Part shown: one piece after another, positions 4,172 through 31,515 of the stretch
Layout: every line of letters begins with the position of its first letter
How positions within the stretch are numbered: position 1 is the first letter of the stretch
Origin: an uncultured Dehalococcoidales bacterium
Lineage (GTDB): Bacteria; Chloroflexota; Dehalococcoidia; Dehalococcoidales; CAYYQY01
NCBI GenBank assembly: GCA_964473905.1
Contig: CAYYQY010000004.1
Coordinates: forward strand, 1-58,196
Length of the DNA stretch: 58,196 bases
Reading direction: 5' to 3'
The notes under the pieces: generated by a model
Databases searched by the model: none
What the model was told of the DNA's origin: nothing
What the model saw: only the letters and a program-made list of their open reading frames with translations
Translations under genes and position numbers: made by a program

Positions 4172-6139
4172 CTACTGCCTCTCACTAACCAGAGCACCAA
4201 CTACCGAAGGATCGGACAGCGTGCTGGTATCACCCAGTTCGTTTACATCACCGGAGGCAATCTTGGTAAGTATACGCCTCATTATTTTACCGCTTCTGGT
4301 CTTGGGTAGACCGTCGGCAAACTGAATCTTGTCCGGTGTGGCTATCGGGCCAATCTGTTTGCGGACGTGAGCAATAAGTTCCTTTTTTAATTCCTCGGTC
4401 TTTTCTACGCCGGCATTCAGGGTCACGAAGGCATATATGCCCTGACCTTTCAAATCGTGCGGCATACCGACCACGGCCGCCTCCGCTACCAGGTCATGGG
4501 CTACCAGAGCACTCTCAACCTCGGCAGTACCGATACGATGTCCGGATACATTGATGACGTCGTCAATACGACCCATCAACCAGTAGTAACCGTCTTCGTC
4601 AATCCTGGCACCGTCTCCGGTAGTATAGCAGCCGGGGAATTTAAGGAAGTATGTTTCTTTAAATCGCTCCGGTTCTCCGTAAACTCGCCGCATCAGGCCC
4701 GGCCATGGTTTGGTAATAACCAGATAACCGCCCTCGTTTACCTCTGTCTTGGAGCCATCTTCCCGGAGTATGGAAAGGGCCACGCCGGGGAAAGGTACCG
4801 TGGCCGAACCCGGCTTAATTGGGGTAGCTCCCGGCAGCGGTGAGACCAAGGCACCGCCTGTCTCTGTCTGCCACCAGGTATCTACAATGGGGCAATTGCT
4901 TTTACCAATTACCTCGTAATACCACATCCAGGCTTCGGGATTAATAGGTTCACCCACCGTGCCCAGAATACGCAGGCTGCTTAAATCATGCTTGTTAACC
5001 CAGTCATCACCTTCCCTCATCAATGTCCGTAAAACGGTAGGCGCCGAGTAGAAAACACTTACCTGATACTTTTCCACCATCTGCCAGAATCTATCGGGAT
5101 TGGGATAAGTGGGAACGCCCTCAAACATCATGGCAGTAGTGCCCAAAGACAGAGGACCATATACGATGTAGGTATGGCCGGTTACCCAGCCGATATCCGC
5201 TGTGCACCAGAAAGAGTCCTCTTCCTTGATATCAAAAACCCATTTTAGGGTCTGGTAGGCATACAGCAAATAACCGGCCTGAGTATGAAGAACGCCTTTA
5301 GGTTTGCCGGTACTGCCGCTCGTATAAAGTATAAACAGGGGGTCTTCGGAATCCATTACTTCGGGTTCACAGTAGGACTTAATGTCACCGGCACTCATCT
5401 CCTCGTGCCACCAGTGCTCACGTCCCTCCTTCAAGACTACTTCAGCCCCTGCCCTCTTAACTACGATAACATCTTTGACATCGGGACAGCTTTCGAGTGC
5501 CTTGTCCGCATTGTCCTTGCTCTTGATAACTCTACCGCTACGATAGTAGCCATCGGTGCAAACAAGGAACGTGGAACCGCAGTCCAAAATTCTATCCCGC
5601 AGCGCTTCGGCGCTGAAACCGCCAAAAACAACGCTATGAATGGCACCAATCCGAGCGCAGGCCAGCATAGCAATCGGCAATTCAACAATCATAGGTAGAT
5701 ATATGGTTACCCGGTCACCCTTTTTAACGCCATGCTTCTTCATTACGTTGGCAAACTTGCATACCTCGTAGTAAAGTTGCTGATAGGTAAGGGTCCTGAC
5801 ATCACCGATATCTCCCTCCCATATCAGCGCTGCTTTATTCTTACGCCATGTTTTCAAATGTCTGTCTAAACAGTTGTAACTGACATTGAGTTTGCCGCCC
5901 ACAAACCACTCATGTTTGCCCTGGGCGAACTCATCAACGAGCACCTTGTCCCATTTCTTGTACCAGTCCAGCTGCTCTGCCAACTCTCCCCAGAACCCTT
6001 CGGTATCTTCGATAGAACGCTTATAAAGAGCCTTATATTCGTCCATACTCTTGATATAAGCGTTCTTCCGGAGTTCTTCCGGGGGATAGAATATCCGTGT
6101 CTCCTCCATCATAGAACTAATAGCTTTTTTCTCTTCCAT
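4172..6139 (-). CDS. acs: Acetyl-CoA synthetase (AMP-forming)
   Basis: [36 protein letters not shown] and [11 protein letters not shown] motifs; 655 aa. Confidence 0.97.
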
Positions 6140-6256
6140 CTACACTCCTTTCCCATACGGGTAATATTAATAATTATTGGATACCGTAATCAGCGAGGCA
6201 AATTCCAACTGCCTGGCATAGCCAAAAAGCACAGCCTGGCATATCACACTTGTCTT

Positions 6257-6432
6257 CTAACCCGGTGAACCACCCTTGAACAGATTTCACACCCTATGCA
6301 GCACTATCTCAGGACGCACAGGAACGCAACGGGCTAAATCAATGGCCGGATGATGTGGAGTTTACGCCTTCCCTGCAGTAACTGCCAGGAATAAAAACCT
6401 GCCACAGTGACATTCAAGGTAGCCGCAGGCTT
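6257..6432 (+). ncRNA. ssrS: Probable 6S RNA
   Basis: About 175-nt intergenic rod with CCTTGAA (6274-80)/TTCAAGG (6413-19) stem. CCCTTGAACAGATTTCACACC and TAAAAACCTGCCAC...ACATTCA resemble the E. coli 6S segments flanking the central bubble (compared from memory). Ends are approximate and the strand is not fully certain. Confidence 0.6.
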
Positions 6433-6812
6433 TATAAATGGCAGTACACACTTTACAGAAGAAGGCCACTCCCCGAACACTGTTAGTTCAAGCAGCTATA
6501 ATCGTTGGTGATACGCTGTCAAATAAACAATATACATACCCTCTAACCGGAAGGGTAAACATATCAAACCCACCACGACTCGCTCGTCACTCAGGCCGCG
6601 AAAAATATCCGCTCCATGAGAAGCCGATATTGTATATTTGTAAACCTCCGATTAGTCTGATGCGCAAAGCACCGCTCTTTATTATAATATATTGTTTATT
6701 TCGTCCGCAAGCCTTTATTCAGCATTATTGATGGAAACGGATATAATATGGAGATGAATGAAGTCTATACATTCCCAAGTTGAGTTCAAAACCACTGCAT
6801 TTAACCGAATTA

Positions 6813-7049
6813 CTAGTTCGCGCTGGAGCACACGGCTTGCTCCTCCTCCGGCTTAGTATCTTTGAATTCTTCCTGAAATTCAAGGGATCGCTCCAGTAAA
6901 GCCTCGGCTTCAGCTAAAGTCCCGGCACGATTTACCCTCAGTTGCCGACGGCCACCGAAGTAATAATATCCCGCTATAGCCAGCCCAATGGCCGCCGGTA
7001 TACCTATAAAAACTCCAAGTACCAGCAGTATCGCCAATGTCAACTCCAT
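6813..7049 (-). CDS. Small single-pass membrane protein, unknown function
   Basis: Hydrophobic N-terminus followed by a charged tail; GGGAGAG RBS upstream. Confidence 0.7.
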   Translation of the reverse strand: MELTLAILLVLGVFIGIPAAIGLAIAGYYYFGGRRQLRVNRAGTLAEAEALLERSLEFQEEFKDTKPEEEQAVCSSAN

Positions 7050-7071
7050 CTTTACTCTCCCTTCATACTAA

Positions 7072-7188
7072 CTAGTGATACATATTGTGCCGTCTTAACA
7101 TATAGCCAATCACGAAAAGTATGGCTACCGGTAAGCCTAACCTGGTTGTAACAGCAAGCGCCTCAATTAATACCGCATCCAGTATCAT
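7072..7188 (-). CDS. 38-aa membrane peptide (below ORF-track cutoff)
   Basis: MILDAVLIEALAVTTRLGLPVAILFVIGYMLRRHNMYH*, with a GAGG RBS; lies directly upstream of 6813..7049 on the same strand. Confidence 0.6.
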   Translation of the reverse strand: MILDAVLIEALAVTTRLGLPVAILFVIGYMLRRHNMYH

Positions 7189-7457
7189 GACACCTCTGGC
7201 ACACGCACTAACCTTCCAACCATTTAAAACATATCATATCTATAAGTGAAGTATCATCAGCTTTACTGCCTAATCTGGCTACAGTAAAGACCATATATGT
7301 ATTACAAAAGTTAGGTATGACTACCTAGCATATGTAAGTATTTTAGCCTATTTCTACGTATTTCGTTCTAGGCATTTATTCCTATTTTTCCTCAACTCAT
7401 TGCTGTTTTTGTTTGAGACGCCTTTAACCATGCGTAAGTGCCGGTTCAATACATAAA

Positions 7458-7486
7458 TTGACAGTTGGTCATGGTTATGCTATAAT
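7458..7486 (+). promoter_or_regulatory. Sigma70-type promoter of the aro leader/operon
   Basis: Perfect TTGACA-N17-TATAAT. Confidence 0.85.
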
Positions 7487-7500
7487 TATTCCCTAGTAAT

Positions 7501-7560
7501 ATGGAAATGTACAAAAACTCTCAGGGCTATTATTATTACGCGTTTACGTGGCGCATATAG
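7501..7560 (+). CDS. Attenuator leader peptide MEMYKNSQGYYYYAFTWRI
   Basis: 19 codons, 7 of them aromatic (Y x5, F, W), between the promoter and a terminator preceding aroF. Confidence 0.8.
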   Translation: MEMYKNSQGYYYYAFTWRI

Positions 7561-7627
7561 TGCGTCAGGGAGGGTTTTACAAAATAATTATAACGATATA
7601 GATTTCAGCCAAGAATAAGTAATTTAA

Positions 7628-7660
7628 AAAGAACCTCCCCGGCGGGAGGTTCTTTATTAT
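7628..7660 (+). terminator. Attenuator terminator of the aro operon
   Basis: AAAGAACCTCCC-cggc-GGGAGGTTCTTT 12-bp stem with U/A-rich tail; competing antiterminator strand CGTCAGGGAGG at 7563-7573. Confidence 0.8.
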
Positions 7661-7714
7661 TATAGGAAAAAATAAACTCAATCAGCAGCCCTGATAATAA
7701 GGAGGAGCCGTCAG

Positions 7715-8800
7715 ATGATAATAATGCGCAGTGGTGCCACCCAGGAACAGATAAACGAGGTCATTAAAGAGATAAAAAGGTGCCGGTTGAATGCGGACGT
7801 AAGTCACGGTAAGTATAAGAGCGTTATTGGTGTAGTGGGTAACGAGAACAAGCTGGACCTGGCCCGCCTCACTACCCTGCCCGGCGTCAGGGAAGTAGTG
7901 AGAATTGACACGCCCTACAAACTGGTGAGCAGAGAGTACGGCAGATACTCCGAGGTAGGCCGCAACCGGATAATCAAAGTAAATGACATCAAGATAGGCG
8001 GTAACGAGCCGGTATTTATCGCCGGGCCCTGTGCCATAGAAAGCAAGGAACAGCTATTTAAAACCGCGGAAGGAGTTAAAAAAGCCGGAGCGCACATTCT
8101 AAGAGGGGGAATCTTTAAACCCAGAAGCTCAGTCCACTCTTTCCAGGGACTGGGAGCCGCCGGCCAGAACGAAGCACGGGAAGCCCTGGGCTGGCTACGG
8201 GAAGCCGGCGAAAAATTTGAGATGCCGGTGGTAACCGAGGTCAGAGGCGAATCACAGGTTGAACTTATCGCCGAGTATGTTAATATAATCCAGATAGGTG
8301 CCAGAAATATGTACGACCAGGACCTGCTGACCAGCGTGGCCAGAACCGGTAAACCCATCCTCTTCAAGAGGCATTTCGGGGCCGGTATTGAAGAGTTTTT
8401 ATCATTTGCCGAATATATCGCCGCCGAGGGCAACCGGGATATAATTCTCTGTGAGCGGGGGATTATACCCATAGGCAAGGGGAAGAGTTACACACGATAC
8501 ACTCTGGACCTGGCCGCCGTACCGGCCATGCAGCAGGAGACCTATCTACCGGTAATGGTAGACCCCAGTCATGGCACCGGGCGTAGAGACCTTATATTCA
8601 GCATGAGCTGTGCCGCTATTGCTGCCGGTGCCAACGGGCTGATGATAGAGACCCACCATAACCCGTCGGAGGCACTGGTTGATGCGCAACAGATGATAAC
8701 CCCCGATGAGCTTAAAGAAGTGATCACCGCCTGCCGGAAAATCAATAAACAGCTGCGTAGAAAGTTACCAGCGGGACTGGCGCTAGAGAATAATAAATGA
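7715..8800 (+). CDS. aroF: DAHP synthase, type I-beta with N-terminal regulatory domain
   Basis: IAGPCAIES, RGGIFKPRSS, QIGARNM, ILCERG and VDPSHGTG motifs. Confidence 0.95.
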   Translation: MIIMRSGATQEQINEVIKEIKRCRLNADVSHGKYKSVIGVVGNENKLDLARLTTLPGVREVVRIDTPYKLVSREYGRYSEVGRNRIIKVNDIKIGGNEPVFIAGPCAIESKEQLFKTAEGVKKAGAHILRGGIFKPRSSVHSFQGLGAAGQNEAREALGWLREAGEKFEMPVVTEVRGESQVELIAEYVNIIQIGARNMYDQDLLTSVARTGKPILFKRHFGAGIEEFLSFAEYIAAEGNRDIILCERGIIPIGKGKSYTRYTLDLAAVPAMQQETYLPVMVDPSHGTGRRDLIFSMSCAAIAAGANGLMIETHHNPSEALVDAQQMITPDELKEVITACRKINKQLRRKLPAGLALENNK

Positions 8801-8827
8801 TATAAATCAGAGTCAACAGTAATTATA

Positions 8828-9916
8828 ATGATGTATCAGCGTATAGCGGTTGAGTTCAAAACAGAAATGGCCCTGCCGGTAGTTATCGGGGCCGGTATCA
8901 TCGATGACATACCGGACCTGGTGGACTTCAGTGCCTATTCAGCCATCGTCCTCCTGACCGACACGACTGTGGGCAAGCTTTACGGAGAGCGGGTTATCCG
9001 GTCTTTAAATAAAATCGGTAAAAAAATCGTCACCCTCACCTTTCCCCCTGGTGAGCGCACCAAATCCGCGGGACCGGTCGCACGCGCCTACCGTTTCCTG
9101 ATGGATAGCGCTATAGACCGTGACGCCCTGCTCGTCGTGCTGGGCGGCGGTGTGGTTGGTGATTTGGGCGGCTATATAGCGTCTACCTACCTTCGCGGCG
9201 TGGACTATATACAGATACCGACAACCCTCCTCGCCCAGGTAGACAGCAGCATCGGCGGCAAGGTAGGCATAAATTTCGGCGGTAAGAAAAACATGGTGGG
9301 CAGCTTTTACCAGCCCGTAGCCATAATTTCGGATGTAAGTTGCCTTAAGTCGCTACCGGCCAGAGAAATGCGTAACGGTATGGCCGAAGTGATAAAATAC
9401 GGGCTGGCTATAGATAAAGAGCTATTTAATAAACTCGGTAACAGAAAGAGCAGGGGATTTACCCGAAACGAACTGATAGACATCGTTACCCGCTGTGCCG
9501 GTCTCAAGGCGAGAGTGGTTGAGGCAGATGAAACCGACCGTAGCGGCAAACGGTCAATCCTTAACTTCGGGCACACGGCAGGACACGCTGTAGAAGCAGC
9601 TGCCGCCCTGAGGAGAATACGCCACGGAGAGGCGGTAGCTATCGGTATGGTGGTGGCGAGCCGGATAAGCAATAAGCTCAATATGCTTGAGGCTGACAGC
9701 ATTAAGGAAATAGAGAGTGTCCTTGAGCACTACGGTCTCCCTGCCCGCTGCCCCGGAACGCCATTTACCGAGATAACCAAGGCCCTGGAGTTTGATAAGA
9801 AAATAACTCACGGTCAGCTAAAATGGGTGCTGCTGGATAGTATTGGCAATGGTGTGGTAAATTGCACCGTTGATAAAGACACGGTTATAGAAGTTCTCGG
9901 CGAGGTGTGCCCATGA
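8828..9916 (+). CDS. aroB: 3-dehydroquinate synthase
   Basis: GGGVVGDLGGY, PTTLLAQVDSSIGGKVG and LNFGHTAGHA motifs. Confidence 0.96.
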   Translation: MMYQRIAVEFKTEMALPVVIGAGIIDDIPDLVDFSAYSAIVLLTDTTVGKLYGERVIRSLNKIGKKIVTLTFPPGERTKSAGPVARAYRFLMDSAIDRDALLVVLGGGVVGDLGGYIASTYLRGVDYIQIPTTLLAQVDSSIGGKVGINFGGKKNMVGSFYQPVAIISDVSCLKSLPAREMRNGMAEVIKYGLAIDKELFNKLGNRKSRGFTRNELIDIVTRCAGLKARVVEADETDRSGKRSILNFGHTAGHAVEAAAALRRIRHGEAVAIGMVVASRISNKLNMLEADSIKEIESVLEHYGLPARCPGTPFTEITKALEFDKKITHGQLKWVLLDSIGNGVVNCTVDKDTVIEVLGEVCP

Positions 9917-10356
9917 AAATTCTGGTTATTAACGGTCCCAACTTGAATATGCTGGGTAAGAGAGAGACGAAGCACTACGGAGAGCAGACCCTGAAATCAA
10001 TAGAGACGGCTCTGGTAGAGAAGGCGGAGGCACTGGGTTACGCGCTGGGCTTCTTCCAGTCAAACAGCGAGGGAAGCCTCATAGATTTTATTCAGGCAGA
10101 GGCTGAGACGGCATCCGGCATTATTATTAACCCCGGGGCCCTCGCCCATTATGGCTACTCACTTCACGACGCTCTCCTGGACTGCGGGCTGCCCGTGGTT
10201 GAAGTGCACATGTCCAATATATCTGCCCGGGAAGACTGGCGCCGGCAGTCGGTCATTGCCGACGTGACTATCGGACAGATTAGCGGATTTAAAGCGGAAA
10301 GCTACAGCCTGGCCCTTTTAGCCCTGGTAGACTATATCCGGAGCCAGCCCCGGTGA
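9913..10356 (+). CDS. aroQ: Type II 3-dehydroquinate dehydratase
   Basis: INGPNLNMLGKRE..YG, QSNSEG, INPGA and EVHMSN; ATGA overlap with aroB. Confidence 0.96.
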   Translation: MKILVINGPNLNMLGKRETKHYGEQTLKSIETALVEKAEALGYALGFFQSNSEGSLIDFIQAEAETASGIIINPGALAHYGYSLHDALLDCGLPVVEVHMSNISAREDWRRQSVIADVTIGQISGFKAESYSLALLALVDYIRSQPR

Positions 10357-11639
10357 AACTTAAAGTCACACCGTCCACCGTAAGCGGCATAGTGACCGCA
10401 CCACCATCAAAGAGCTATAGCCACCGGGCGGTAATACTGGGTTCGCTGGCCCGTGGAGAAACCGTTATTGAAAACCTGCTCTTCTCGGACGATACCGGAT
10501 ACACCATTAACGCCTGCCGCTCGCTGGGGGTAGACATTGAGCGTTACGGTCAGAGTCTAAGGATTAAGGGCACGAGCGGTAATCTCCTGGTAAGGCCGGG
10601 GCACAACACCATATTTGCCGGCAACTCCGGAAGTACGCTGCGCATGCTGCTGCCCCTCGCCGCCCTCGCCGACGGCAAAATCATCTTTGACGGGTCGATA
10701 AGGCTCCGCGAGCGTCCCGTTACCGAAATTCTCGCGGCACTGGCAAGCCTCGGCGTTAAAACAAGCTCAATTGACAAAAACGGCAGGCTGCCGGTTGAGG
10801 TTCAGGGAGGTAGATTATATGGCGGAGAGGTGCTGACCAGCGGTCTCGCCGGCTCACAGCATGTTAGCTCACTGCTTATGATTGCCCCCTACGCCCGCTC
10901 CGGCATAAAGATAAAGATAACTGACAGCCTCAGGTCAAAACCCTATGTAGATATGACTGTTGAGGCTATGCGTCGCTTCGGGGTGGAGGTTGAGCGCCGT
11001 AACCATGACGAGTTTACCGTAACCAGCGGGCAGAGATATCAGGGGCAGCACTACGAAATAGAAGGCGACTACTCGTCGGCAGCCTTTTTCTTCGCCCTGG
11101 GCGCTATCGGCGGTAAGGAAGTAACTGTTGCTAATTTGAATGGGGACTCTTTGCAGGGAGACCGCTACTTTCTGGAGTTAATGTCTTTGATGGGCTGTTA
11201 TGTCAACCATAGTCCCGGGCAAATATCTGTAAGGAGAGAGGGAGAACTTACCGGCATCACAGCAGATATGGGTGATTATCCCGATATCGTCCAACCGCTC
11301 GCTGCCGTAGCTGCCTTTGCCCGAGGTACCACAAATATATCTAATATCAGTCATCTAAAGGGCAAGGAGACAGACCGTATTATTAATACAGCCGCTGAAC
11401 TCGGTAAAATGGGGATTACCGTAAAGGTAACGGAAAACAGTATGTCTATTACCGGCGGCAGGCCCCGGGGAGCCAAGGTGGATGCGCATGATGACCACCG
11501 TCTGGCGATGAGCCTGGCCATTGCTGGCCTCTTTGCCGGAGATGAGACGGTTATTAACGGCGCGGGGACGGTTAATAAATCATATCCGGATTTCTTTACC
11601 GACCTCGCCAGTATCGGGGCTAAACTGGAGCCCGTTTAG
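10353..11639 (+). CDS. aroA: EPSP synthase
   Basis: PPSKSYSHRA, GNSGSTLR, KETDRI and HDDHRLAM motifs. Confidence 0.96.
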   Translation: MKLKVTPSTVSGIVTAPPSKSYSHRAVILGSLARGETVIENLLFSDDTGYTINACRSLGVDIERYGQSLRIKGTSGNLLVRPGHNTIFAGNSGSTLRMLLPLAALADGKIIFDGSIRLRERPVTEILAALASLGVKTSSIDKNGRLPVEVQGGRLYGGEVLTSGLAGSQHVSSLLMIAPYARSGIKIKITDSLRSKPYVDMTVEAMRRFGVEVERRNHDEFTVTSGQRYQGQHYEIEGDYSSAAFFFALGAIGGKEVTVANLNGDSLQGDRYFLELMSLMGCYVNHSPGQISVRREGELTGITADMGDYPDIVQPLAAVAAFARGTTNISNISHLKGKETDRIINTAAELGKMGITVKVTENSMSITGGRPRGAKVDAHDDHRLAMSLAIAGLFAGDETVINGAGTVNKSYPDFFTDLASIGAKLEPV

Positions 11640-11643
11640 TATA

Positions 11644-12153
11644 ATGAATATTGTTCTTATCGGTATGCGCGGCAGCGGCAAGACCGCTACGGGTAAGCTC
11701 CTGGCAATAAGGCTGGGTAAGTCTTATATTGAAACGGACGATTTGATTGCGCAGAAGGCAGGCTTGAGTATAATGGAGATTGTCGATAAATACGGCTGGG
11801 AAAGATTCCGCGATCTGGAAACGGAGATCACGCATAGTCTAGCTACGGTGGATAATGCCATTATTGCCACCGGCGGCGGTATTATCACCAGGGAAGAAAA
11901 TATAAGAGAGCTGAAGAGAATAGGCAAGTTAATCTGGCTGCAAGCCAGTGTAGACACACTCGCCGAGCGTATCGGCGAGGATGACTCCAGACCCTCACTT
12001 ACCGGTAAACCGCTCCGGGAAGACCTGGAGACAGTAATGGCTGGCCGACATGAGATTTATAAACGCGAGTGCGATATTGCCATAAATACCGAGGACAGAA
12101 GCCCGGAAGAAATAGCCGAAATAATATCCGCGCTGCATATGGATGAAAAGTGA
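11644..12153 (+). CDS. aroK: Shikimate kinase
   Basis: MNIVLIGMRGSGKT P-loop, FRDLE, ATGGG and RPSL; start moved to the ATG at 11644. Confidence 0.95.
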   Translation: MNIVLIGMRGSGKTATGKLLAIRLGKSYIETDDLIAQKAGLSIMEIVDKYGWERFRDLETEITHSLATVDNAIIATGGGIITREENIRELKRIGKLIWLQASVDTLAERIGEDDSRPSLTGKPLREDLETVMAGRHEIYKRECDIAINTEDRSPEEIAEIISALHMDEK

Positions 12154-13007
12154 ACAAAATAATCAGTGCCGAAACCAAAATCTGCTGCGTTATGGGAGAG
12201 CCGGTAGCACATTCGCTGTCACCCATAGTGCATAACTGTGGCTATGAGGTACTGGGACTAGACTTTGTCTATATTGCTTTTTCGGTTAATAATATAAGGC
12301 TGGCTATGGACGCCGTAAGGACACTCGGCATACGCGGAGCAAGCATTACCATACCGCATAAAATAAACGCTGTAAAATATATAGATGAGATGGATAATGC
12401 AGCTAAAGACACCGGCTCTATCAACACCGTGGTAAATAATAGCGGCCAACTGAGCGGTTTCAACACCGACTACGCCGCCGCGCTGAAGGCGCTGGAAGAA
12501 AAGACGGCACTTGCGGGGAAGCGGGTGATACTTGTCGGTGCTGGCGGCACTGCCCGGAGCATTGCCCAAGGACTTAAGGAGAAGGGCGCCCGGCTAACCA
12601 TCCTTAACCGCACCCCCGGAAGAGCTGAGGAACTGGCAAAAAAAGTGACAGCCGAAGGCTCCGGCGGCCTGGACGAATTGTCAGCGGTTGCCTCAAGTGA
12701 TATCCTGATTAACGCTACGCCGGTAGGGATGTGGCCCGATACTAATAAGTCAATCGTACCCGGCAACTTGCTGCACCCGTATCTCACCGTTTTTGATGTT
12801 AACTACCATCCCCTGGAGACCAGGCTGATTGCCGATGCCCGTGAAGCCGGATGTACTGTTGTCTACGGATATAAAATGTTCCTCTATCAGGCTGCTATGC
12901 AATTTGAGCTTTTTACCGACCACCCGGCACCGCTACCCGAGATGGAGGCTACTTTAACCAGGGCACTGGGAGGAGACGAGCATGATAAGATTAATAACGG
13001 CCGGTGA
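12150..13007 (+). CDS. aroE: Shikimate dehydrogenase
   Basis: HSLSPIVHN, SITIPHK, GFNTD, GAGGTA and NATPVGM motifs. Confidence 0.95.
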   Translation: MNKIISAETKICCVMGEPVAHSLSPIVHNCGYEVLGLDFVYIAFSVNNIRLAMDAVRTLGIRGASITIPHKINAVKYIDEMDNAAKDTGSINTVVNNSGQLSGFNTDYAAALKALEEKTALAGKRVILVGAGGTARSIAQGLKEKGARLTILNRTPGRAEELAKKVTAEGSGGLDELSAVASSDILINATPVGMWPDTNKSIVPGNLLHPYLTVFDVNYHPLETRLIADAREAGCTVVYGYKMFLYQAAMQFELFTDHPAPLPEMEATLTRALGGDEHDKINNGR

Positions 13008-14145
13008 GTCTCACGGACCCGCCTGCCTGGCTATTCTGGAAGGTATACCCGCCGGTTTTGGCGTTTCGGCTAAAGATATTAATCTGGAGCTAAAAAAACG
13101 CCATACCGATTTCGGCCGTGGCGGCCGGGCGGATATAGAAAAGGACGAGGTAGAAATCCTCTCCGGTATCCGCTATGGCAAAACACTGGGCAGCCCGGTA
13201 GCGCTGCTGGTTAGAAACCTGGACGCCGCTAACTGGCAGTCAGAGATGAGAATTGACAAACCGTCACGGGGTGAAGAAGCCGCCGCTCTGACCCGGCCGC
13301 GCCCCGGACATGCCGACCTGGCTGGGGCTTTCAAGTACGGGCAAGGAGATATCAGGAATATTCTGGAGAGAGCCAGTGCCCGGGAGACAGTCACGCGGGT
13401 GGCCTGCGGTGCAGTGCTGAAAATACTTCTTGCTGAATTCGGCATCAGGATAGCGAGCCATACTGTACAAATCGGGAAAGTAGCGCTGGTGCGGTCTCCG
13501 ATGAGCTTTTACGAGATAGCCAATGTCTATAAGACCGACCCGGCTGTAAGGTGTATTGACCCGGAAACGTCACAGCGGATGGAGGCGGCTATCATGCAAG
13601 CCCGGGAGCAGAAGGACACACTCGGCGGTGTCGTTGAGGTCATAGCCACCGGTGTCCCGCCCGGTCTGGGCAGCGTTATGCACTACGACCGCCGGCTGGA
13701 CGGCACCATAGCCCAGGCACTTATGAGTATCCCATCGGTCAAAGCCATAGCTATTGGTAATGCCATCAAGTTGACTGCCATGCCAGGCTCGGAGGTACAG
13801 GATGCCATTGTCACCAACGAAGGACGTCTGACCCGCCGTACCAATAATATGGGGGGTATTGAAGGCGGCATGAGCAACGGCGAGGACATAATCTGCCGCG
13901 CCTACCACAAGCCCATCTCTACTTTAGGCAACCCCACCCCCACCGTAGATCTCAAAACTCATGAGCCGGCGCCAGCCATAGAGGAAAGGTCTGACGTCTG
14001 TGTGGTACCACGGGCCGGGGTAGTCTCGGAAGCTATGCTGGCCCTTGTTCTAAGCCAGGCTATGAGCGAGAAGTTTGGCGGCGACCATATTGCCGAGATG
14101 AAAAATAACTTCGTTTCTTATATCAGGGCGCTGTCAAAACGCTAG
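12982..14145 (+). CDS. aroC: Chorismate synthase
   Basis: TAGESHG, PRPGHADL, ERASARET, GGIEGGMSNG and ERSDVC motifs. Confidence 0.97.
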   Translation: MIRLITAGESHGPACLAILEGIPAGFGVSAKDINLELKKRHTDFGRGGRADIEKDEVEILSGIRYGKTLGSPVALLVRNLDAANWQSEMRIDKPSRGEEAAALTRPRPGHADLAGAFKYGQGDIRNILERASARETVTRVACGAVLKILLAEFGIRIASHTVQIGKVALVRSPMSFYEIANVYKTDPAVRCIDPETSQRMEAAIMQAREQKDTLGGVVEVIATGVPPGLGSVMHYDRRLDGTIAQALMSIPSVKAIAIGNAIKLTAMPGSEVQDAIVTNEGRLTRRTNNMGGIEGGMSNGEDIICRAYHKPISTLGNPTPTVDLKTHEPAPAIEERSDVCVVPRAGVVSEAMLALVLSQAMSEKFGGDHIAEMKNNFVSYIRALSKR

Positions 14146-14154
14146 CCCTCGTTT

Positions 14155-15291
14155 TTAGAGGCTTTTTATGTACTCAACCGCCCACTCAATAGCCGCCTCT
14201 CCCTCCAGCTCCAACTCGTAGTCCGGGGTTAGCCCCTGCCCTTCGATAACATGTCCGCTCGGAGTCAGCCAGCGCGCCACTGTCAAATACAGACCGGAGC
14301 CGTCTTCGAACTGGTAAATCTTGTTAACGCTGCCCTTGCCGTATGTCTTCTGACCGGCGATAAGAGCCCTTTCGTAATCCTGTAGCGCCCCGGCCAGTAC
14401 CTCGGCACTGCTTGCCGAATAACCATTAACCAGCACCACCATGGGTAACTCGGTAAATACCGATGAGGCCGCCTTTATGGCGCGATAGTCAGTCTGCTCC
14501 TCTCTATCAACCACGCTGACCACCACGCCCTCCTTTAGAAAATGACCGGCAACACTAACGGTCGCTTCCAGTATGCCGCCCAAGTTGTACCTCAGGTCAA
14601 GGACAATGCCTCTCGTCCCCGTGTCCATGTTCTCTATAGCCTCACTCAGCTCTCTATCAGTGCGCTCGGTGAAACTGGTAATCCAGATATAAGCAACATC
14701 ATCCCTCATGTCATAAATGACACTGGGCAAATTAATCTCATCCCTGACTATAGTGATGTCCTGGGGCTCGGACTCTTCCTCGTGAATTACGGTAATGGTA
14801 ACCGGGGTGCCCTTCGGCCCGCGTATCTTCAGCACGGCCTCAGCAACCGCCATTTCCGCGGCGGACTCGCCGTTAATGGCGAGAATTATATCGCCCGCCT
14901 GTATCCCGGCCTCAATCGCCGGGGAGCCAACGAGGGGCGCCACAATAACCACCTGCCCATCCCTGACGGTAACCTCGGCGCCAATCCCTTCTATCTTCCC
15001 TTCCAGATCACTCAAACCCAGTTTATAGGCCTCACTATCCAGATAAGAAGTATAAGGGTCATCCAGTGCCTCAAGCATACCTTCTATGGCAGCTTCACTC
15101 AGCCTGCCGGCATCCAGTTTATCGGTGTCCACGTAATCGGTGACGAGCCTGTCCCATACCTGCACCACGACATCTAACCCCGGGTCATATTCAGGGCACT
15201 CTCTATCCGCCAGCCTGTAGCCGGCACCAAAGGCTAAGGCAACGGTAACCACGATTAATACTACCGTGGTAATTTTCAGTGTTTTTGACAT
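14155..15291 (-). CDS. ctpA: S41 family C-terminal processing protease (PDZ domain, membrane anchored)
   Basis: DPYTSY, GIG, LDLRYNLGG, SASSAE and TYGKGSV; start placed at MSKTLK behind a GAGGT RBS. Confidence 0.93.
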   Translation of the reverse strand: MSKTLKITTVVLIVVTVALAFGAGYRLADRECPEYDPGLDVVVQVWDRLVTDYVDTDKLDAGRLSEAAIEGMLEALDDPYTSYLDSEAYKLGLSDLEGKIEGIGAEVTVRDGQVVIVAPLVGSPAIEAGIQAGDIILAINGESAAEMAVAEAVLKIRGPKGTPVTITVIHEEESEPQDITIVRDEINLPSVIYDMRDDVAYIWITSFTERTDRELSEAIENMDTGTRGIVLDLRYNLGGILEATVSVAGHFLKEGVVVSVVDREEQTDYRAIKAASSVFTELPMVVLVNGYSASSAEVLAGALQDYERALIAGQKTYGKGSVNKIYQFEDGSGLYLTVARWLTPSGHVIEGQGLTPDYELELEGEAAIEWAVEYIKSL

Positions 15292-15462
15292 CCTGCACAC
15301 CTCTAACAAACCTTATATTATAGTATAGCAGTTATCAAGCGAGGGAAAAGGGTAAAGACCGCCCAATAATACCCATACCCCGGCTTTTATGCCGGAGCTG
15401 ACCTAGGATAATCCTGAGACCGAAAGAAGCCTGCGGGAAGAATGAAGGATATTTAAGAGGTT

Positions 15463-15687
15463 TTATTGAACCTGAGTGCGGACGGCGTCCACTATTTTTA
15501 TGGTATCGTCTATATTCACCAGACTGAGGGAAATACCGAGTTTCTTCAGTTCATTATAGCCCAGACCCCGGAAAAGATGTCTCCCCGCCACCCGGCTCAT
15601 CTCATCATATAAAGCTGGCCATTCCTGGCCCCGACGGTTAATACAGAAAAGAACAAACTCACGCGCCAGAGGATTAACAATCATCAT
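15463..15687 (-). CDS. Hypothetical protein (74 aa)
   Basis: Protein-like ORF with AAGGA RBS; no family recognised. Confidence 0.65.
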   Translation of the reverse strand: MMIVNPLAREFVLFCINRRGQEWPALYDEMSRVAGRHLFRGLGYNELKKLGISLSLVNIDDTIKIVDAVRTQVQ

Positions 15688-16064
15688 ATCTAACGGCTTT
15701 CCTTAACACATTAAAACTTCTCCTGAACTATACCCCTTAATCTCTTCATCGGCAAACCCCCTGACACTTAGTTACAGGCATTTTATAAGGATTATTAGCC
15801 CTTGATAACGCTCGGTTCTTCGATTTTACGGCACTTTTCTCAACCTTAAATACGGCACGGCGAGGTACTTTTTTTATAACTTTAGTACCCGTTTTAAACC
15901 CTTACTGCCGCTTGTTTCAGTGCCCATAAGTTGCCGCTATGAGAGCAGCGACAGAGGGTTAAAATTGAAGGAATCCGCAGGGTAAAAGCACGTCACCGGT
16001 AAAAGAGGGACACTACCGCTATCAAATACGTTGTTTCACCGTTAATGTGACGGGGCGGGGTGGA

Positions 16065-16753: not shown

Positions 16754-18415
16754 ATGGCTGAAGCTTCGGTACGCAAGAAGAAAGAACTGCAGGAATTCAT
16801 TGACAAGGGACTCTGGGAAGACCTGACATGGGCAGCGCTGTGGGACAGGAATGCCAAAGAATACCCCGATAGAGAAGCCATGGTCGATTACCGGTCAAGA
16901 TGGACCTGGGCACAGGCTAAACTGGCGATAGACAGGTTAGCCCTGGGTCTGATGGATATGGGCTATAAGAAAGATGACGCTATCGTTGTTGAGCTACCCA
17001 GCTGGTCCGAGTGCATGATAGCCAGAATCGCCTGCGATAAAGCAGGTCTCATTGTAGCCCCCGTGTTAAGGAGTTTCCGTGAAACCGAGATGTTGCATAC
17101 ACTGGCCATTCTTGAGGCCAAGGGTGTAGTCATACCGTATAAGTGGGGCGGTTTTGATTACGTTAACATGATCCAGTCGCTGCGCCCCGACCTGCCCAAG
17201 CTGGAGCATATCTTTATTGTCGGTGACGAGGTTCCCGAGGGATGCATTTCCCTGAACAAGATGCTGGAGGAACCCCTGGAGAAGAAGTACTCTCCGGAGG
17301 AACTGGAAGCACTCTTTGCTAAAACAGTAATGCCCAGCACCGAGGTATCCGAACTCTCGCATACCACCGGCAGTACCGGTCTTCCCAAGCTCGCCGAATG
17401 GCCGGCTGTGCTTGGGTTGGCCCGCACTAAGGACACGGTAAATAAATTCGGGATTAACAAGGACGATGTTCTGGGCGCCCTATCCCCGGGCTGGGGCGGC
17501 ATGAACAACCCTACCTACCACGGTGGACCGTATGTCGGGGCAAAATTCGTCATGATGGAGCGCTGGGATATAGTCGAGGCTTTCAAGCTTATCGAGAAGG
17601 AGAAGATAACCTATTTCGCCATTACGCCAACCATGATGCGCATGATGATGGACCATGCCGATTTCGGTAAATATGATCTGAGCTCTCTCCGGGCTATCAT
17701 GGTATCAGGAGCGCCGTGCCCTCCCGGCTGGCCGCGAGAAGCCGAGGAAAAATTTGGTGCCAGGGTCATCAACACCTACGGTTCGAGAGACCTGGGCAGC
17801 ACAGCGTCGCCTTCATATACAGACCCGCCCGAAACCCGATGGGCAACCGCTGGCAAACCGAACAGCTGGGACGAGATTCATCTGCTCGACGAGGCAGGCA
17901 ATGATGTGCCGGAAGGAGAAGTCGGTGAGGTAGCCGTAAGAGCCGTGACCGGTTCCGGTGGTTACTTTAAGAACCCGGAAGCCAATGCGAGTTCCGCTAC
18001 TCCGGACGGTTTGTTCCGCATTGGTGACCTGGCCAGATTTGATGAAAACGGCAACCTGGTTATTGCCGGGCGCGCCAAGAATATAATTATCCGCGGCGGC
18101 GAGAATATTTATCCTACGGAGATAGAGGGTATGCTCGGTACCCACCCGAACGTAGTCCAGGCAGCCGTAGTCAAGATGCCCGACCCGCTCTTTGGTGAAA
18201 AAGCATGCGCCTATGTCGCTCTTAAACCGGGAGGCACTTTTGCCTTTGACGAAATGGTCTCTTTCCTGAAATCAAAGAAGCTCGCTGCCTTCAAACTGCC
18301 GGAAAGATTGGAAATTGTGGACAAGATACCCATGGTAGGCGACGGCACGAAGGTAGATTTGAAAAGTCTGGAAAAAGACATAGCCGGTAAACTCAAAGCC
18401 GAAGGAAAGGTATAG
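16754..18415 (+). CDS. AMP-forming acid-CoA ligase (aryl/cyclohexanecarboxylate-CoA ligase-like)
   Basis: HTTGSTGLPK, TYGS, GDLARFD, GRAKNIIIRGGENIYP and FKLPERL motifs. Confidence 0.9.
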   Translation: MAEASVRKKKELQEFIDKGLWEDLTWAALWDRNAKEYPDREAMVDYRSRWTWAQAKLAIDRLALGLMDMGYKKDDAIVVELPSWSECMIARIACDKAGLIVAPVLRSFRETEMLHTLAILEAKGVVIPYKWGGFDYVNMIQSLRPDLPKLEHIFIVGDEVPEGCISLNKMLEEPLEKKYSPEELEALFAKTVMPSTEVSELSHTTGSTGLPKLAEWPAVLGLARTKDTVNKFGINKDDVLGALSPGWGGMNNPTYHGGPYVGAKFVMMERWDIVEAFKLIEKEKITYFAITPTMMRMMMDHADFGKYDLSSLRAIMVSGAPCPPGWPREAEEKFGARVINTYGSRDLGSTASPSYTDPPETRWATAGKPNSWDEIHLLDEAGNDVPEGEVGEVAVRAVTGSGGYFKNPEANASSATPDGLFRIGDLARFDENGNLVIAGRAKNIIIRGGENIYPTEIEGMLGTHPNVVQAAVVKMPDPLFGEKACAYVALKPGGTFAFDEMVSFLKSKKLAAFKLPERLEIVDKIPMVGDGTKVDLKSLEKDIAGKLKAEGKV

Positions 18416-18427
18416 AAAAAGATACAA

Positions 18428-18511
18428 AGGAGGCGGTCCATATGTAATTTGCGCACACATCTGGGGTTCATGAGTATATTTTGACTGCAAAATATACTGT
18501 TTGCGTCAAAA
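18428..18511 (+). promoter_or_regulatory. SD + start-stop element and overlapping inverted repeats
   Basis: AGGAGG-N8-ATG-TAA at 18428-18447; AGTATATTTTG/CAAAATATACT at 18473-98; alternative TTTTGAC-GCAAA/TTTGC-GTCAAAA at 18479-18511. Confidence 0.4.
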
Positions 18512-18555
18512 TGCTTAAAAAATATAGTCCAATTGCCCAAATCGAGGAGGTTATA

Positions 18556-20235
18556 ATGGCAATAGAACCCAGGGAAGATTATAGTTACTACGAGTTTTCT
18601 GAGGATGATGTAGACGATACCTGGTGGGTCTGGGATATGGGGCATACCCCACCCACCGCACCGTGGTCACCGATGTTTGTCCAGTGGTGGATGTACGGTG
18701 CTACCGTGCCCCTGGCCAAAGCACTGGAAGATGCGGCCACACCAAGATCCAAGGGCCCTCGCAGCCGGTCAAACCGCGGCTACCACATGGTGACAGTCGC
18801 CGTGCCTCACAACGAAGAGGAGATACAGGAACGCAGCGAGAGGTACCGGCAAGCGGTTCTGCCCTGGCTTCAGGATACAGACAAGATACTGAACGAAATT
18901 AAAGCCGAGCTATCGGGAGTATACGAGAAGTACAAGAACTATAACTACGCCACAGCCAGCTGGAGCGAACTGATAGAATGGGTCCATGACTGGGAGCTAT
19001 TCAACTACCGTCACTGGTACCTGCACTTCTGGGCAATGGTATCCACCGGCGCTATCTTTGTTGACTGGGAGAACCTGAGCTACGAGCTACTGGGAATGGA
19101 CGCTCATCATCCCACGTTCCAGAGACTGATGAGAGGCTTTGACAACACCAACTTCGAGACCGAGAGACAGCTTCACGCGATAGCGCAGAAGGTCACTGAC
19201 GCGGGGCTAAAGGACATGGTAGTCAGCAGCAGTCCCGGAGAAATAATGGGTAAGCTGCTGGGCAGTGAAGCCGGCAAGCGCGTGCTCGCCGATTTTAACA
19301 AGTTCCTGGACAAGTATGGCTGGCGTAACTTCATGATGGACACCTACATGACACCCAGCTGGAGAGAGGACACATCACCGGCATGGCAGCGTATCCAGCA
19401 GTTTGTTAACCACCCCACCTTCAAACTGGATGAGATTATAGTTAAGCAAGCCGCGGAAAGAAAACTGGCAGAAGAAGAAATAGTAAACGCGCTGCCGGTT
19501 GACCAGAGAGAATGGTACCGCATACTTATGAAAGCAGGACAGGTAGCCAGTGTCTGGGCAGAAGACCACAGCTTCTTCTTTGAGATGCAGTCGCACTCAA
19601 TAGGCCGCTACTTCTGGCTGGAAGTGGGTAAGAGGCTCGTCGCCACCGGCGCTATTGAGCAACCTGATGACATCTTCATGCTGGTACCGCAGGAAGTATC
19701 CATATTGCTTTCCGACCCCTACAAGTGCAAAGCCAAGAAGAAGGCAAAAGCCCGCAGAGCCGAGTGGGACGCTGCCAAATCCTTCTTCCCCGAACCGTAC
19801 TATGGCAGAATTCCTCAGCCCGATGCCATGATGGAGATGATGGCCTCACAGGATGTCATCTTCACCAAGGTAACCCAGGAGAAACCGCCCGAGCCCAGAC
19901 CGGAACTCAAGGCTGACCTCATTGGCGTATCCGGCTCACCGGGTATCGCCGAGGGCATCGCCCGCGTCATAATGTCACCGGCCCAGATGGGCGAAGTACA
20001 GGAAGGCGAAATACTGGTAGCCCCCATCACAGACTCAACCTGGACTCCTGTCTTCAGTATAATCAAGGGAGTAGTGCTGAACACCGGCGCTCCGCTGTGC
20101 CACGCCGCTATTATTGCCCGCGAGTATGGCCTGGCCGCCGTGGTCAACACCGTTGAAGGCACTGACAAGATAAAGACAGGACAGCGAGTCAGGGTAGACG
20201 CTGACGTCGGCGCTGTTTACATACTGGATAAATAA
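18556..20235 (+). CDS. ppsA: Phenylphosphate synthase alpha-like subunit (PEP-utilising mobile His domain + N-terminal helical domain)
   Basis: C-terminal GVSGSPG..EG and GAPLCHAAIIAREYG phospho-His motif; no ATP-grasp or pyruvate-binding barrel; GAGGAGG RBS before ATG 18556. The symbol refers to phenylphosphate synthase, not PEP synthase. Confidence 0.8.
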   Translation: MAIEPREDYSYYEFSEDDVDDTWWVWDMGHTPPTAPWSPMFVQWWMYGATVPLAKALEDAATPRSKGPRSRSNRGYHMVTVAVPHNEEEIQERSERYRQAVLPWLQDTDKILNEIKAELSGVYEKYKNYNYATASWSELIEWVHDWELFNYRHWYLHFWAMVSTGAIFVDWENLSYELLGMDAHHPTFQRLMRGFDNTNFETERQLHAIAQKVTDAGLKDMVVSSSPGEIMGKLLGSEAGKRVLADFNKFLDKYGWRNFMMDTYMTPSWREDTSPAWQRIQQFVNHPTFKLDEIIVKQAAERKLAEEEIVNALPVDQREWYRILMKAGQVASVWAEDHSFFFEMQSHSIGRYFWLEVGKRLVATGAIEQPDDIFMLVPQEVSILLSDPYKCKAKKKAKARRAEWDAAKSFFPEPYYGRIPQPDAMMEMMASQDVIFTKVTQEKPPEPRPELKADLIGVSGSPGIAEGIARVIMSPAQMGEVQEGEILVAPITDSTWTPVFSIIKGVVLNTGAPLCHAAIIAREYGLAAVVNTVEGTDKIKTGQRVRVDADVGAVYILDK

Positions 20236-20315
20236 AGTCGGGTAAAAGCGATAAGTACCATGCCGGTTGCGGCAGCGATATTGGTGCCGGGTATGGCTGG
20301 CTAATTGCTAACGAA

Positions 20316-20351
20316 GGGTAGCCCTTTGTATTTGGGTGCAAAGGGCTACCC
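20316..20351 (+). promoter_or_regulatory. Intercistronic stem-loop
   Basis: GGGTAGCCCTTTG/CAAAGGGCTACCC 13-bp perfect stem with no U-tract. Confidence 0.6.
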
Positions 20352-20377
20352 GGAAAGACCTGGGGGAGAGATAGAAA

Positions 20378-21823
20378 ATGGCATTTAAGGATTTGAGAGA
20401 TTACATTTCAGCACTGGAGCAACACGGACAATTAAAAAGAGTTGACAGGGAAGTCGATTGGAACATTGAAGCAGGGGCTATTTCCCGACTGGTTTATGAA
20501 AAAGGCCTGCCTTCTCCCCTCTTTGAAAATGTTACCGGTTATCCCGGATATAGACTTTTTGGTGCGCCAATCAGCACCTTTTCCAAACTTGCCATCGCTC
20601 TGGGGCTGGACCCGGAGACCAGCATTAAAGAATTAATTAATTTCTATCTGGAGAAAAAAAAGGATCTTGTTAAGCCAGTCTTCGTGGATAAAAGCCAGGC
20701 ACCCTGCAAGGAAAATATTGACATAGGTGACCAGGTTGACCTTATGAAATTCCCGTCACCCATGTTGCACGAGGGTGATGGCGGCAGGTATTTATGCACG
20801 TGGCATATTAACGTCTCCAAGGACCCCGATACGGGCTGGATAAACTGGGGTTGCTACCGGGCTATGGTGTCCGGCAAGAACACACTGACCGGCCCGGTGA
20901 GTCCGGCAAAACACATGGGTTCTCAATATCAAAAATACAAAGCGAAAAATATCCCGATGCCATTTGCCATTGCCATAGGTCCTGAACCCGTAAGCGGTTT
21001 TATAGCCGGAGCCAGGGTAGCCGCCAACCTTTACGAAGCCGAACTGGTCGGTGCGCTGAGGCAGGAACCGATAGAACTGGTCAAATGTGAAACCGTAGAT
21101 TTAGAGGTGCCGGCAGGTTCTGAAATCGTAATTGAGGGCGAGATATCCCTGACTGAGAAAGACTGGGAGGGACCTTTCGGCGAGTTTGTCGGTTACAGCG
21201 CTACAGGAAGAAACAAAGCGCCGGTATGGAACGTAAAAGCGATCACCTACCGTAACAACCCGATAATAACCATGTCCAACACCGGAGTGCCCGTGGATGA
21301 ATACCACCTTGACGTAGGTCTGGTCAGGTCGGCAGAGCTGTATAACAGGCTGCGTGCCGATGGTATCCCGGTGGTAGCCGTAAACGCACCGCCGGAGGGT
21401 GTTGGCTTCCTGGTTATCGTCAGCGTATCCGGTAACACACCGAATATCGCGGAGAAGGTTACTTCCAGTATCTGGAGTTCTCCCCAGGGATCAAACGCCC
21501 CCTTCGTTTTTGTGGTAAACGATGACGTGGACGTCTTTAATATATGGGAGGTCATGCATGCTATGGTCACCAAGTGCCATCCCTACCGTGATATCTGGAG
21601 AGTGGAGCGGGCCTCGGCCATACCGTTTATGACCTTTCTAAATGCCTACGAGAGGCAACACCGCCTAGGGGCCAAGGTCTACTTCGATTGTACCTGGCCT
21701 ACTGACTGGGACCCTGTATCAGAAATTCCGCCGAAGATATCCTTTGACGCTAATTACTCCCATGAAGTGAAAGAGCACGTCCTCAAAAACTGGGAGAACT
21801 ATGGCTTTATCAGGCTAGCCTAA
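20378..21823 (+). CDS. UbiD-family (de)carboxylase, phenylphosphate carboxylase-like large subunit
   Basis: DGGRY, NWGCYR, EGPFGEFVGY and GVPVDE. C-terminal FDCTWPTDW...NWENYGF resembles the Ppc clade as recalled. Confidence 0.88.
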   Translation: MAFKDLRDYISALEQHGQLKRVDREVDWNIEAGAISRLVYEKGLPSPLFENVTGYPGYRLFGAPISTFSKLAIALGLDPETSIKELINFYLEKKKDLVKPVFVDKSQAPCKENIDIGDQVDLMKFPSPMLHEGDGGRYLCTWHINVSKDPDTGWINWGCYRAMVSGKNTLTGPVSPAKHMGSQYQKYKAKNIPMPFAIAIGPEPVSGFIAGARVAANLYEAELVGALRQEPIELVKCETVDLEVPAGSEIVIEGEISLTEKDWEGPFGEFVGYSATGRNKAPVWNVKAITYRNNPIITMSNTGVPVDEYHLDVGLVRSAELYNRLRADGIPVVAVNAPPEGVGFLVIVSVSGNTPNIAEKVTSSIWSSPQGSNAPFVFVVNDDVDVFNIWEVMHAMVTKCHPYRDIWRVERASAIPFMTFLNAYERQHRLGAKVYFDCTWPTDWDPVSEIPPKISFDANYSHEVKEHVLKNWENYGFIRLA

Positions 21824-21837
21824 GGAGGCCGTTTAAG

Positions 21838-22077: not shown

Positions 22078-22149
22078 GCCCGGAGCGACTTCATAACGGG
22101 GAGGGGAATATTAGCTCAAGAGTGGAGATATTTATGGAGGTAATATACG

Positions 22150-23181: not shown

Positions 23182-23221
23182 ATCTTTCCTGAAGAGCAAT
23201 TTACCAGTAAGTTTACAGCCG

Positions 23222-23271
23222 GTACCCACTTAAGTTAACTTAACTTAACTAAGGTAAGCTTGAGTGGGTAC
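23222..23271 (+). repeat. Long inverted repeat enclosing a TTAAC triplet repeat
   Basis: GTACCCACTTAAG/CTTGAGTGGGTAC arms; TTAAC x3 at 23235-49. Confidence 0.6.
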
Positions 23272-30412: not shown

Positions 30413-30430
30413 CTTTTGTGGAGTGATGGT

Positions 30431-31498: not shown

Positions 31499-31515
31499 GG
31501 TTACGAAGTAAGACA

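Follow-up and report, generated by a model that had tools for sequence, protein, structure and literature searches.

Attenuation by an aromatic leader peptide ahead of aroF, the gene of 3-deoxy-D-arabino-heptulosonate 7-phosphate (DAHP) synthase, has a described example in Corynebacterium glutamicum, where transcription of the aroF operon is attenuated through aroR, a leader peptide with Phe-Tyr-Phe (Neshat et al. 2014, cited after PMC11802643); aroR was reported to respond to Phe, not to Tyr. In Acholeplasma, uORFC-13-1 is a predicted leader open reading frame (ORF) with an intrinsic terminator that is found exclusively upstream of aroF and was proposed to sense the speed of phenylalanine incorporation (PMC8632094). 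Dehalococcoides carries T-box leaders at trpE, a trpB-like gene and ileS (PMC2494555). Here we describe a leader from the Dehalococcoidia, which are abundant in sediments and aquifers, mostly uncultured, and almost unknown in their gene regulation. It lies upstream of aroF in a stretch of 58,196 nucleotides (nt) from an uncultured Dehalococcoidales bacterium (contig CAYYQY010000004.1 of assembly GCA_964473905.1), hereafter called the window, to which all coordinates refer. With a probability of roughly 85%, judged from sequence and its comparison, this leader would be a classical ribosome-mediated transcription attenuator of the shikimate operon, as an earlier note on this DNA had proposed. 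Most likely, a shortage of aromatic amino acids would switch the seven-gene operon on.

Results

Architecture and folding of the window leader

On the plus strand, reading the sequence gives a −35 hexamer TTGACA (7458–7463) and, after a 17-nt spacer, an extended −10 element TGcTATAAT (7478–7486). The consensus promoter seen by the earlier note thus holds: it matches the sigma-70 consensus at 12/12 positions, has the extended −10 TG in addition, and is the sole 12/12 site within 6000–16000. From this we infer a transcription start at about 7493. The leader ORF, MEMYKNSQGYYYYAFTWRI followed by a stop, comprises 19 codons from ATG 7501 to TAG 7558–7560; the ORF had been seen before, and its description is corrected here in that the start is at 7501 and no Shine-Dalgarno (SD) sequence is recognisable. 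Its control codons UAU UAU UAU UAC GCG UUU ACG UGG (7528–7551) encode four Tyr, one Phe and one Trp, i.e., six aromatic residues in eight codons.

Around this run the leader carries the complete classical set of 1:2, 2:3 and 3:4 pairings. Region 1, AAAACUCUC (7514–7522), lies inside the leader ORF 6–14 nt ahead of the Tyr run and is the anti-antiterminator in the minimum free energy (MFE) fold. The same fold contains a small hairpin, UGGCGCAU-AUA-GUGCGUCA (7549–7567), whose 5′ arm begins at the Trp codon, whose loop holds the window stop codon and whose 3′ arm is the first part of region 2. Region 2, the antiterminator strand CGUCAGGGAGGGUUUU (7563–7578), has region 1 or the terminator 5′ arm and loop as alternative partners. 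Its core CGTCAGGGAGG (RNA CGUCAGGGAGG) occupies exactly 7563–7573, 3–13 nt beyond the stop codon, which is where the earlier note had placed the antiterminator. After an A+U-rich, poorly conserved spacer (7579–7627) follows the intrinsic terminator hairpin formed by regions 3 and 4 (7628–7655), AAAGAACCTCCC-CGGC-GGGAGGTTCTTT in DNA and AAAGAACCUCCC-CGGC-GGGAGGUUCUUU in RNA, with the 5′ arm at 7628–7639, the loop at 7640–7643 and the 3′ arm at 7644–7655. It has 12 bp, six of them G-C pairs, and runs into the U-rich tail UUUAUUAUUAUAG (7653–7665; T-rich in DNA as ATTATTATAG). The duplex of region 2 with the terminator 5′ arm and loop consists of 4 bp, one mismatch, 6 bp, a G/A mismatch and four more pairs; at −19.2 kcal/mol it agrees with the pairing between a 12-bp terminator and the antiterminator that had been read from the sequence before.

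The predicted transcript 7493–7665 folds with an MFE of −42.7 kcal/mol (z = −3.35; 1/200 shuffles as good). In this fold region 1 pairs with GGGAGGGUUUU (7568–7578) and encloses the hairpin 7549–7567, so that the optimum of the full-length RNA free of ribosomes is 1:2 plus terminator. The earlier two-structure model stands for the terminator and the antiterminator; it had overlooked region 1 and the small hairpin. When the transcript was cut at 7643 and the Tyr run was masked, the antiterminator formed; it could not do so when the masked stretch was the one covered by a ribosome at the stop codon.

Conservation upstream of aroF

AroF was used to scan species-representative genomes, and the best 80 loci (AroF identity 65–76%) all belong to metagenome-assembled genomes of Dehalococcoidales, Dehalococcoidia or Chloroflexota. 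The layout was counted in the 74 loci whose upstream DNA extends to 300 nt or more; together with the window these make up the 75 leaders referred to below. In 74/74 related loci, a run of aromatic codons lies 80–114 nt ahead of a terminator with a CCCUCC/GGAGGG stem, and in 74/75 leaders (73/74 for the related loci alone) the run belongs to a short ORF that starts with ATG and has the same place in the alignment. Of the 74 leaders scored for promoters, 66 have one that matches at least 10/12 positions, 15–40 nt ahead of the leader ORF. Together with the covariation of terminator, antiterminator and anti-antiterminator described below, the layout in 74/74 related loci supports leader-peptide attenuation. 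Both the conserved Y/F/W-rich upstream ORFs and the covarying stems that the earlier note suggested looking for ahead of aroF orthologues are there.

The best 8-codon window holds 4, 5, 6, 7 or 8 aromatic codons in 3, 17, 25, 25 and 5 leaders, respectively. At least five of eight are thus reached in 72/75 leaders, while their reverse complements mostly reach 3–4 and dinucleotide shuffles reach at least five in 35/750 trials. Codon totals over the control regions of the 75 leaders are 184 TAT, 118 TAC, 102 TTT, 29 TTC and 57 TGG. The codons vary and aromaticity is kept, which is the pattern expected of selection on the decoded amino acid and not on an RNA motif. On average, a control region of about 12 codons contains 4.0 Tyr, 1.75 Phe and 0.76 Trp codons, and from this composition Tyr appears as the main candidate signal, with Phe second and Trp optional. 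In cultured Dehalococcoides, T-boxes serve the Trp branch separately (PMC2494555). The idea that one peptide integrates all three aromatic amino acids is supported in part: it fits the 50/75 leaders in which all three codon types occur; it does not extend to the 20/75 control regions with no Trp codon. For the window peptide itself, such integration is plausible.

Leaders differ in where the ORF ends. A stop codon 1–25 nt past region 2 is the rule (70/75 leaders), and an unstalled ribosome would then translate across the antiterminator strand. The window is an extreme outlier with its stop in the hairpin loop; its nearest relatives, L081 and L082 (AroF 82–83% identical), have the long-form leader MLVRITPQQYYRYYAFTWRTGCAGGGIA. 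The arrangement proposed before, with a stop ahead of the antiterminator strand, thus describes the window and is the minority form in the family. The short form is no accident; hairpin-loop stops recur independently in other leaders of the same RNA module (L088, L129, L138, L151, L159 and L161). Openness of the frame from region 1 to the hairpin does not discriminate, with 75, 63 and 53 of the 75 leaders open in the three frames.

In 21/75 leaders (e.g., L004, L010 and L019), the SD-like GGGAGG of region 2 is followed 4–10 nt on by an ATG, at 7 nt in 16 of them. This additional ATG shares bases with the leader stop (AUGA) and begins a mini-ORF of 3–6 codons; the window does not have it. Regions 1 and 3 (CCUCCC) in turn resemble the anti-SD sequence of 16S rRNA.

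Covariation of the competing helices

RNAalifold returned only fragments (8 pairs) on a plain MAFFT alignment, because that alignment is out of structural register. Alignment-free duplex energies took its place. For 2:3, partners from their own locus reach −20.7 kcal/mol, compared with −17.1 kcal/mol for partners from other loci and −10.8 kcal/mol for shuffled ones (0/10000 permutations), and for 1:2 the values are −15.3 kcal/mol within and −12.3 kcal/mol across loci (0/10000 permutations). Exchanges can be followed directly in the sequences: the terminator loop and the 5′ part of region 2 change in concert as AAGC/GCUU, AGGC/GCCU, GAGC/GCUC and CCAGC/GCUGG, and regions 1 and 2 occur in the matched variants CUCUCAAG/CUUGAGGG and CUUCCGGG/CCCGGGAG. 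Held in a rigid register, the loop and the 5′ extension of region 2 give 3.5 vs 2.9 pairs of 6, a significant but weak signal, since loop boundaries shift among loci. In most loci region 1 ends 0–8 nt ahead of the aromatic run.

We then derived a covariance model from 30 leaders and the off-state structure (1:2, hairpin and terminator), which led to an alignment of 82 sequences. At each locus the model has exactly one match, always directly upstream of aroF. The off-state helices are 89.3% paired, with compensatory change in 20/23 pairs, and 0/500 shuffles match this. Compensatory changes affect 7/7 pairs of the 1:2 helix, 4/5 pairs of the small hairpin (93% paired across the 82 sequences) and 9/11 pairs of the terminator (92% paired). 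The antiterminator, which lies outside the fitted structure, has 90.2% of its cells paired and 33 compensatory cells where 9.9 are expected (0/500 shuffles); slid controls reach 39–70%. Directly observed here are the elements in the sequence, how they are conserved and how all competing helices covary.

T-boxes, known riboswitches and the Rfam leader families were rejected. The T-box riboswitch (RF00230) had no match at E up to 10 in 7000–8000, and the Stem I, specifier loop and T-box sequence that such leaders require are not present. Phe_leader (RF01859) scored 28 bits against a gathering threshold of 55 and aligned to the terminator only, as did weak matches to small RNA families.

The same RNA module at other operons

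A second covariance-model match in the window (49568–49732, 28 bits) marks a paralogous leader on the plus strand, with the whole element spanning 49505–49730. From the sequence we read a promoter TTGACA-17-TGtTAGAAT (−35 at 49505–49510), the leader ORF MKHLIKSTEQRNFIFIKRTGVRLRRLDTGK (49565–49657), the same GCGCAC..GUGCGC hairpin followed by CUUGAGGAGG, and a CCUCCC-stem terminator (49698–49725). The operon behind it (49772–57104) encodes an acyl-CoA ligase, LivH/M-type permeases, a binding protein, an ATPase and a PaaK-like ligase. This ligase/transporter leader is present in 6/6 homologous loci, and an F-[IVA]-F motif is conserved in it. Immediately ahead of the second leader, a plus-strand ORF (48871–49473) encodes a T4 gp19-like tail-tube domain (PF06841, E 5e-29) and may be part of a prophage or a contractile injection system.

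Scanning metagenomes for the hairpin and the region 2 core gave at least 120 matches, 80 of which are listed as loci (L091–L170); their contigs have no taxonomic assignment, and their AroF and ligase genes are 65–82% identical to those of the window. According to an automated search, an ATG-started short ORF runs into the hairpin in 72 of the 80 matches listed, and F/Y/W codons almost always stand immediately 5′ of the hairpin. Among these 80, 22 lie ahead of aroF and 36 ahead of the ligase/transporter operon. Further matches listed precede genes of family III CoA-transferases, an octopine-dehydrogenase-like (Octopine_DH) enzyme, a class I/II aminotransferase, an ABC substrate-binding protein and an MFS transporter (examples of such other gene types are L103, L113, L128, L138, L160 and L169). 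Every non-aroF copy that was re-searched is a full-length covariance-model match, terminator included. L103 and L128 have two leaders each. In L128, a Tyr-rich leader (DYYYAYYF) stands ahead of genes for a family III CoA-transferase (CoA_transf_3), two HGD-D subunits and a BcrAD/BadFG activator, i.e., a 2-hydroxyacyl-CoA dehydratase cluster of the Fld type.

The balance of evidence tips slightly toward regarding the hairpin GCGCAC..GUGCGC, the UUGGGRGG element and the CCCUCC-stem terminator with its loop in the antiterminator as one reusable unit of a Dehalococcoidia-wide aromatic attenuation regulon, in which each copy has a Tyr- or Phe-rich leader of its own. As such an attenuator would turn genes on under starvation for aromatic tRNAs, we may speculate that the poorly understood operons behind the module serve to take up or salvage aromatic amino acids or aryl acids and not to catabolise them. 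The module could then help to predict how uncharacterised genes respond to starvation for aromatic amino acids.

The shikimate operon and other features

Downstream of the leader, a strong SD sequence AGGAGGAG (7700–7707) precedes aroF (7715–8800), which encodes a type I-beta DAHP synthase with an N-terminal ferredoxin-like domain (PF00793, PF18152). It is followed on the same strand by aroB (8828–9916), aroQ (9907–10356), aroA (10353–11639), aroK (within 11521–12153), aroE (12150–13007) and aroC (12982–14145), all assigned by Pfam. These tightly packed or overlapping genes form one operon for all seven shikimate steps to chorismate, so the complete shikimate operon announced by the earlier note is indeed present. 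A convergent gene (14155–15309) comes directly after aroC.

Elsewhere in the neighbourhood (16754–24599 and 42555–46427), genes encode an AMP-binding ligase, proteins that are PEP-utilising or resemble pyruvate phosphate dikinase (PPDK), a UbiD-family decarboxylase, a UPF0261 protein, a 4Fe-4S protein and a NiFe-hydrogenase-like subunit; this content is compatible with anaerobic aromatic or acyl-CoA metabolism. Within a minus-strand ORF of 92 amino acids (27796–28074), a segment of about 34 bp, TTGCTTGATATCACCAGGTTGGGCTTCCTCCTG, is perfectly duplicated in tandem (27913–27990), so that the peptide segment PGDIKQQEEAQ is repeated. One more aromatic mini-ORF, MFHTYYYIFNFWNDGISTYSYTNHRRRH (28217–28303, plus strand; 6/8 aromatic codons), was considered as a leader and rejected, as it has no terminator, alternative helices or covariance-model match. 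It overlaps the start (28254) of a CutA1/cyclophilin-like gene, the first of a row that continues with an amine oxidase gene, pheA (30416–31498) and tyrA (31495–32334), and probably is a chance occurrence in an A+T-rich promoter region.

One related locus, L046, also appears in peat metatranscriptome assemblies, where the 31-nt terminator of its aro leader (L046 positions 2891–2921) has a high word depth. In one peat contig this terminator has different flanks and is followed by AAAAAGGAGGGC, which suggests that an identical terminator stands ahead of another gene in the same peat community.

Discussion

How the leader would work

The elements described above suggest the following course of events. 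Transcription would start at the strong promoter, and the leader ORF would be translated as RNA polymerase moves downstream. When charged aromatic tRNAs are scarce, chiefly those for Tyr, then Phe and perhaps Trp, the ribosome would stall within 7528–7551 and cover region 1 (7514–7522) as well as the hairpin 5′ arm. Region 2 (7563–7578) would then be unpaired and could bind the terminator 5′ arm and loop once these are transcribed; the terminator would be blocked, and the operon from aroF to aroC would be transcribed. With adequate supply, the ribosome would reach the stop at 7558–7560 or, in most family members, run over region 2 itself. Region 2 would then be masked, the hairpin 7628–7655 could form, and transcription would end at the U-rich tail. 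If the leader is not translated, region 1 would pair with region 2, which makes termination the predicted default. The ribosome footprints, the coupling of transcription and translation, the tRNA-charging signal and actual termination are what we infer in this scheme.

Several points weigh against such an attenuator. Even a 3-nt SD core is missing in 15 of the 74 leaders scored for the start codon, the window among them. The window ORF, which has no recognisable SD and a short predicted 5′ untranslated region (about 8 nt), is the member of the family with the weakest signals for translation. The U-tract behind the terminator is broken by A residues. Energetically, the antiterminator closes a loop of about 50 nt, and at equilibrium on 7557–7665 the terminator (−23.0 kcal/mol) is favoured over the antiterminator (−14.5 kcal/mol) by about 8.5 kcal/mol. 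The switch must hence be kinetic. In classical systems such as the E. coli trp leader, the decision is likewise a kinetic one. The covariation counts, moreover, come from an alignment fitted to one structure and from mutually related sequences. Conservation of the hairpin GCGCAC..GUGCGC is stricter than structure alone demands, and it is possible that an extra factor or a pause signal acts there. As to transcripts, a search for RNA sequencing runs that contain the window found none, and the peat metatranscriptome contigs of L046, which cover leader and aroF, have a flat assembler depth.

Other explanations

The leader might instead be an RNA switch that binds a ligand, a tRNA or a protein, in the manner of a riboswitch, a T-box or a TRAP-like system; the hairpin, region 2 and the terminator would then be its expression platform and the ORF incidental. 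The sequence conservation of GCGCAC-N3-4-GUGCGC and UUGGGRGG across leader families speaks for it, as does the reading frame after the loop, which differs between aro and transporter leaders and therefore points to conservation at the RNA level. T-boxes at trp genes of Dehalococcoides (PMC2494555) add a precedent within the lineage. Yet no Rfam family reaches its threshold anywhere in the window, the T-box model finds nothing in 7000–8000 even at the permissive E limit of 10, and the interval from region 1 to the hairpin contains the codon run only and no conserved structure. An RNA switch also fails to explain why a nucleotide-variable aromatic run is kept in a single frame and headed by a conserved ATG, or why the content of the run changes in sister families (F-x-F vs Y-rich) when the RNA module is unchanged. 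We hence consider this explanation unlikely.

It is less likely still that the peptide arrests its own ribosome like TnaC and senses free aromatic amino acids in place of tRNA charging. The leader ORF is clearly conserved and aromatic-rich, as such a mechanism would have it, and sequence data alone cannot separate stalling at hungry codons from peptide-mediated arrest. An arrest peptide is, however, hard to reconcile with the poor conservation outside the aromatic run and the helix-encoded part, and with the free variation in length and order of the Y/F/W residues. Its sign would be wrong as well, given that stalling induced by abundance would free the antiterminator and switch a biosynthetic operon on when it is unneeded. 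A constitutive promoter with a leaky terminator and a small ORF that arose by chance, in short no amino-acid response at all, is the least probable explanation by our estimate. Chance might produce such a picture in any single stretch of DNA; 8-codon windows with at least five aromatic codons occur about 46 times in other frames of the 58-kb window. Against chance stand the conservation in 75/75 leaders at 65–83% AroF identity, the covariation of three mutually exclusive helices and the single covariance-model match per locus; by these comparative data, the chance reading is effectively refuted already. Ribosome-mediated attenuation thus is the reading that we prefer.

Novelty and relation to known systems

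The mechanism is textbook, and it is the family of leaders that apparently is new. The family is absent from Rfam and apparently undescribed: our literature search found no such leader for the Dehalococcoidia or Chloroflexota, although it left subscription journals mostly uncovered, so that an earlier description is possible, and the main text of a noncoding RNA survey of 50 genomes that includes Dehalococcoides mentions none. The novelty supposed in the earlier note accordingly appears to stand for the Chloroflexota and is narrower otherwise, aromatic leaders at aroF being known in C. glutamicum and predicted in Acholeplasma. The value of the present work lies in coverage and annotation and not in a new principle. 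For the Dehalococcoidia, the leader provides a regulatory signal of aromatic amino-acid limitation that can be read from sequence. It would also place the common shikimate pathway under control at the transcript level, beside any allosteric control via the ferredoxin-like domain of the DAHP synthase.

Among known systems, pheL-pheA and trpL-trpEDCBA of E. coli are similar in having a promoter-proximal short ORF enriched in codons of the end product and four RNA segments that pair as 1:2, 2:3 (antiterminator) and 3:4 (terminator), with the position of the ribosome deciding between them (PMC11802643). In trpL the stop codon lies just ahead of region 2, as in the window. Beyond this layout, the E. 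coli leaders have no sequence or covariance-model relationship to the window leader. The window run mixes three amino acids and controls the common shikimate pathway in place of a terminal branch, its region 1 comes before the control codons and a separate small hairpin follows them, and in most Dehalococcoidia members the ORF runs on through region 2.

The aroR leader resembles the window leader in that an aromatic leader peptide and attenuation are found directly upstream of a DAHP synthase operon, a likeness that is a functional analogy only. It belongs to the Actinomycetota and has three control codons, whereas the chloroflexotal leader has a longer, Tyr-dominated run and is followed by seven shikimate genes. 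Similarly, uORFC-13-1 is a Phe-centred element of the Mollicutes, and with no Rfam family at threshold in the window there is no evidence of common ancestry. The T-box leaders of Dehalococcoides come from the same lineage and, too, convert uncharged tRNA into antitermination of amino-acid genes. They bind the tRNA directly, whereas in the window leader the ribosome would be the sensor.

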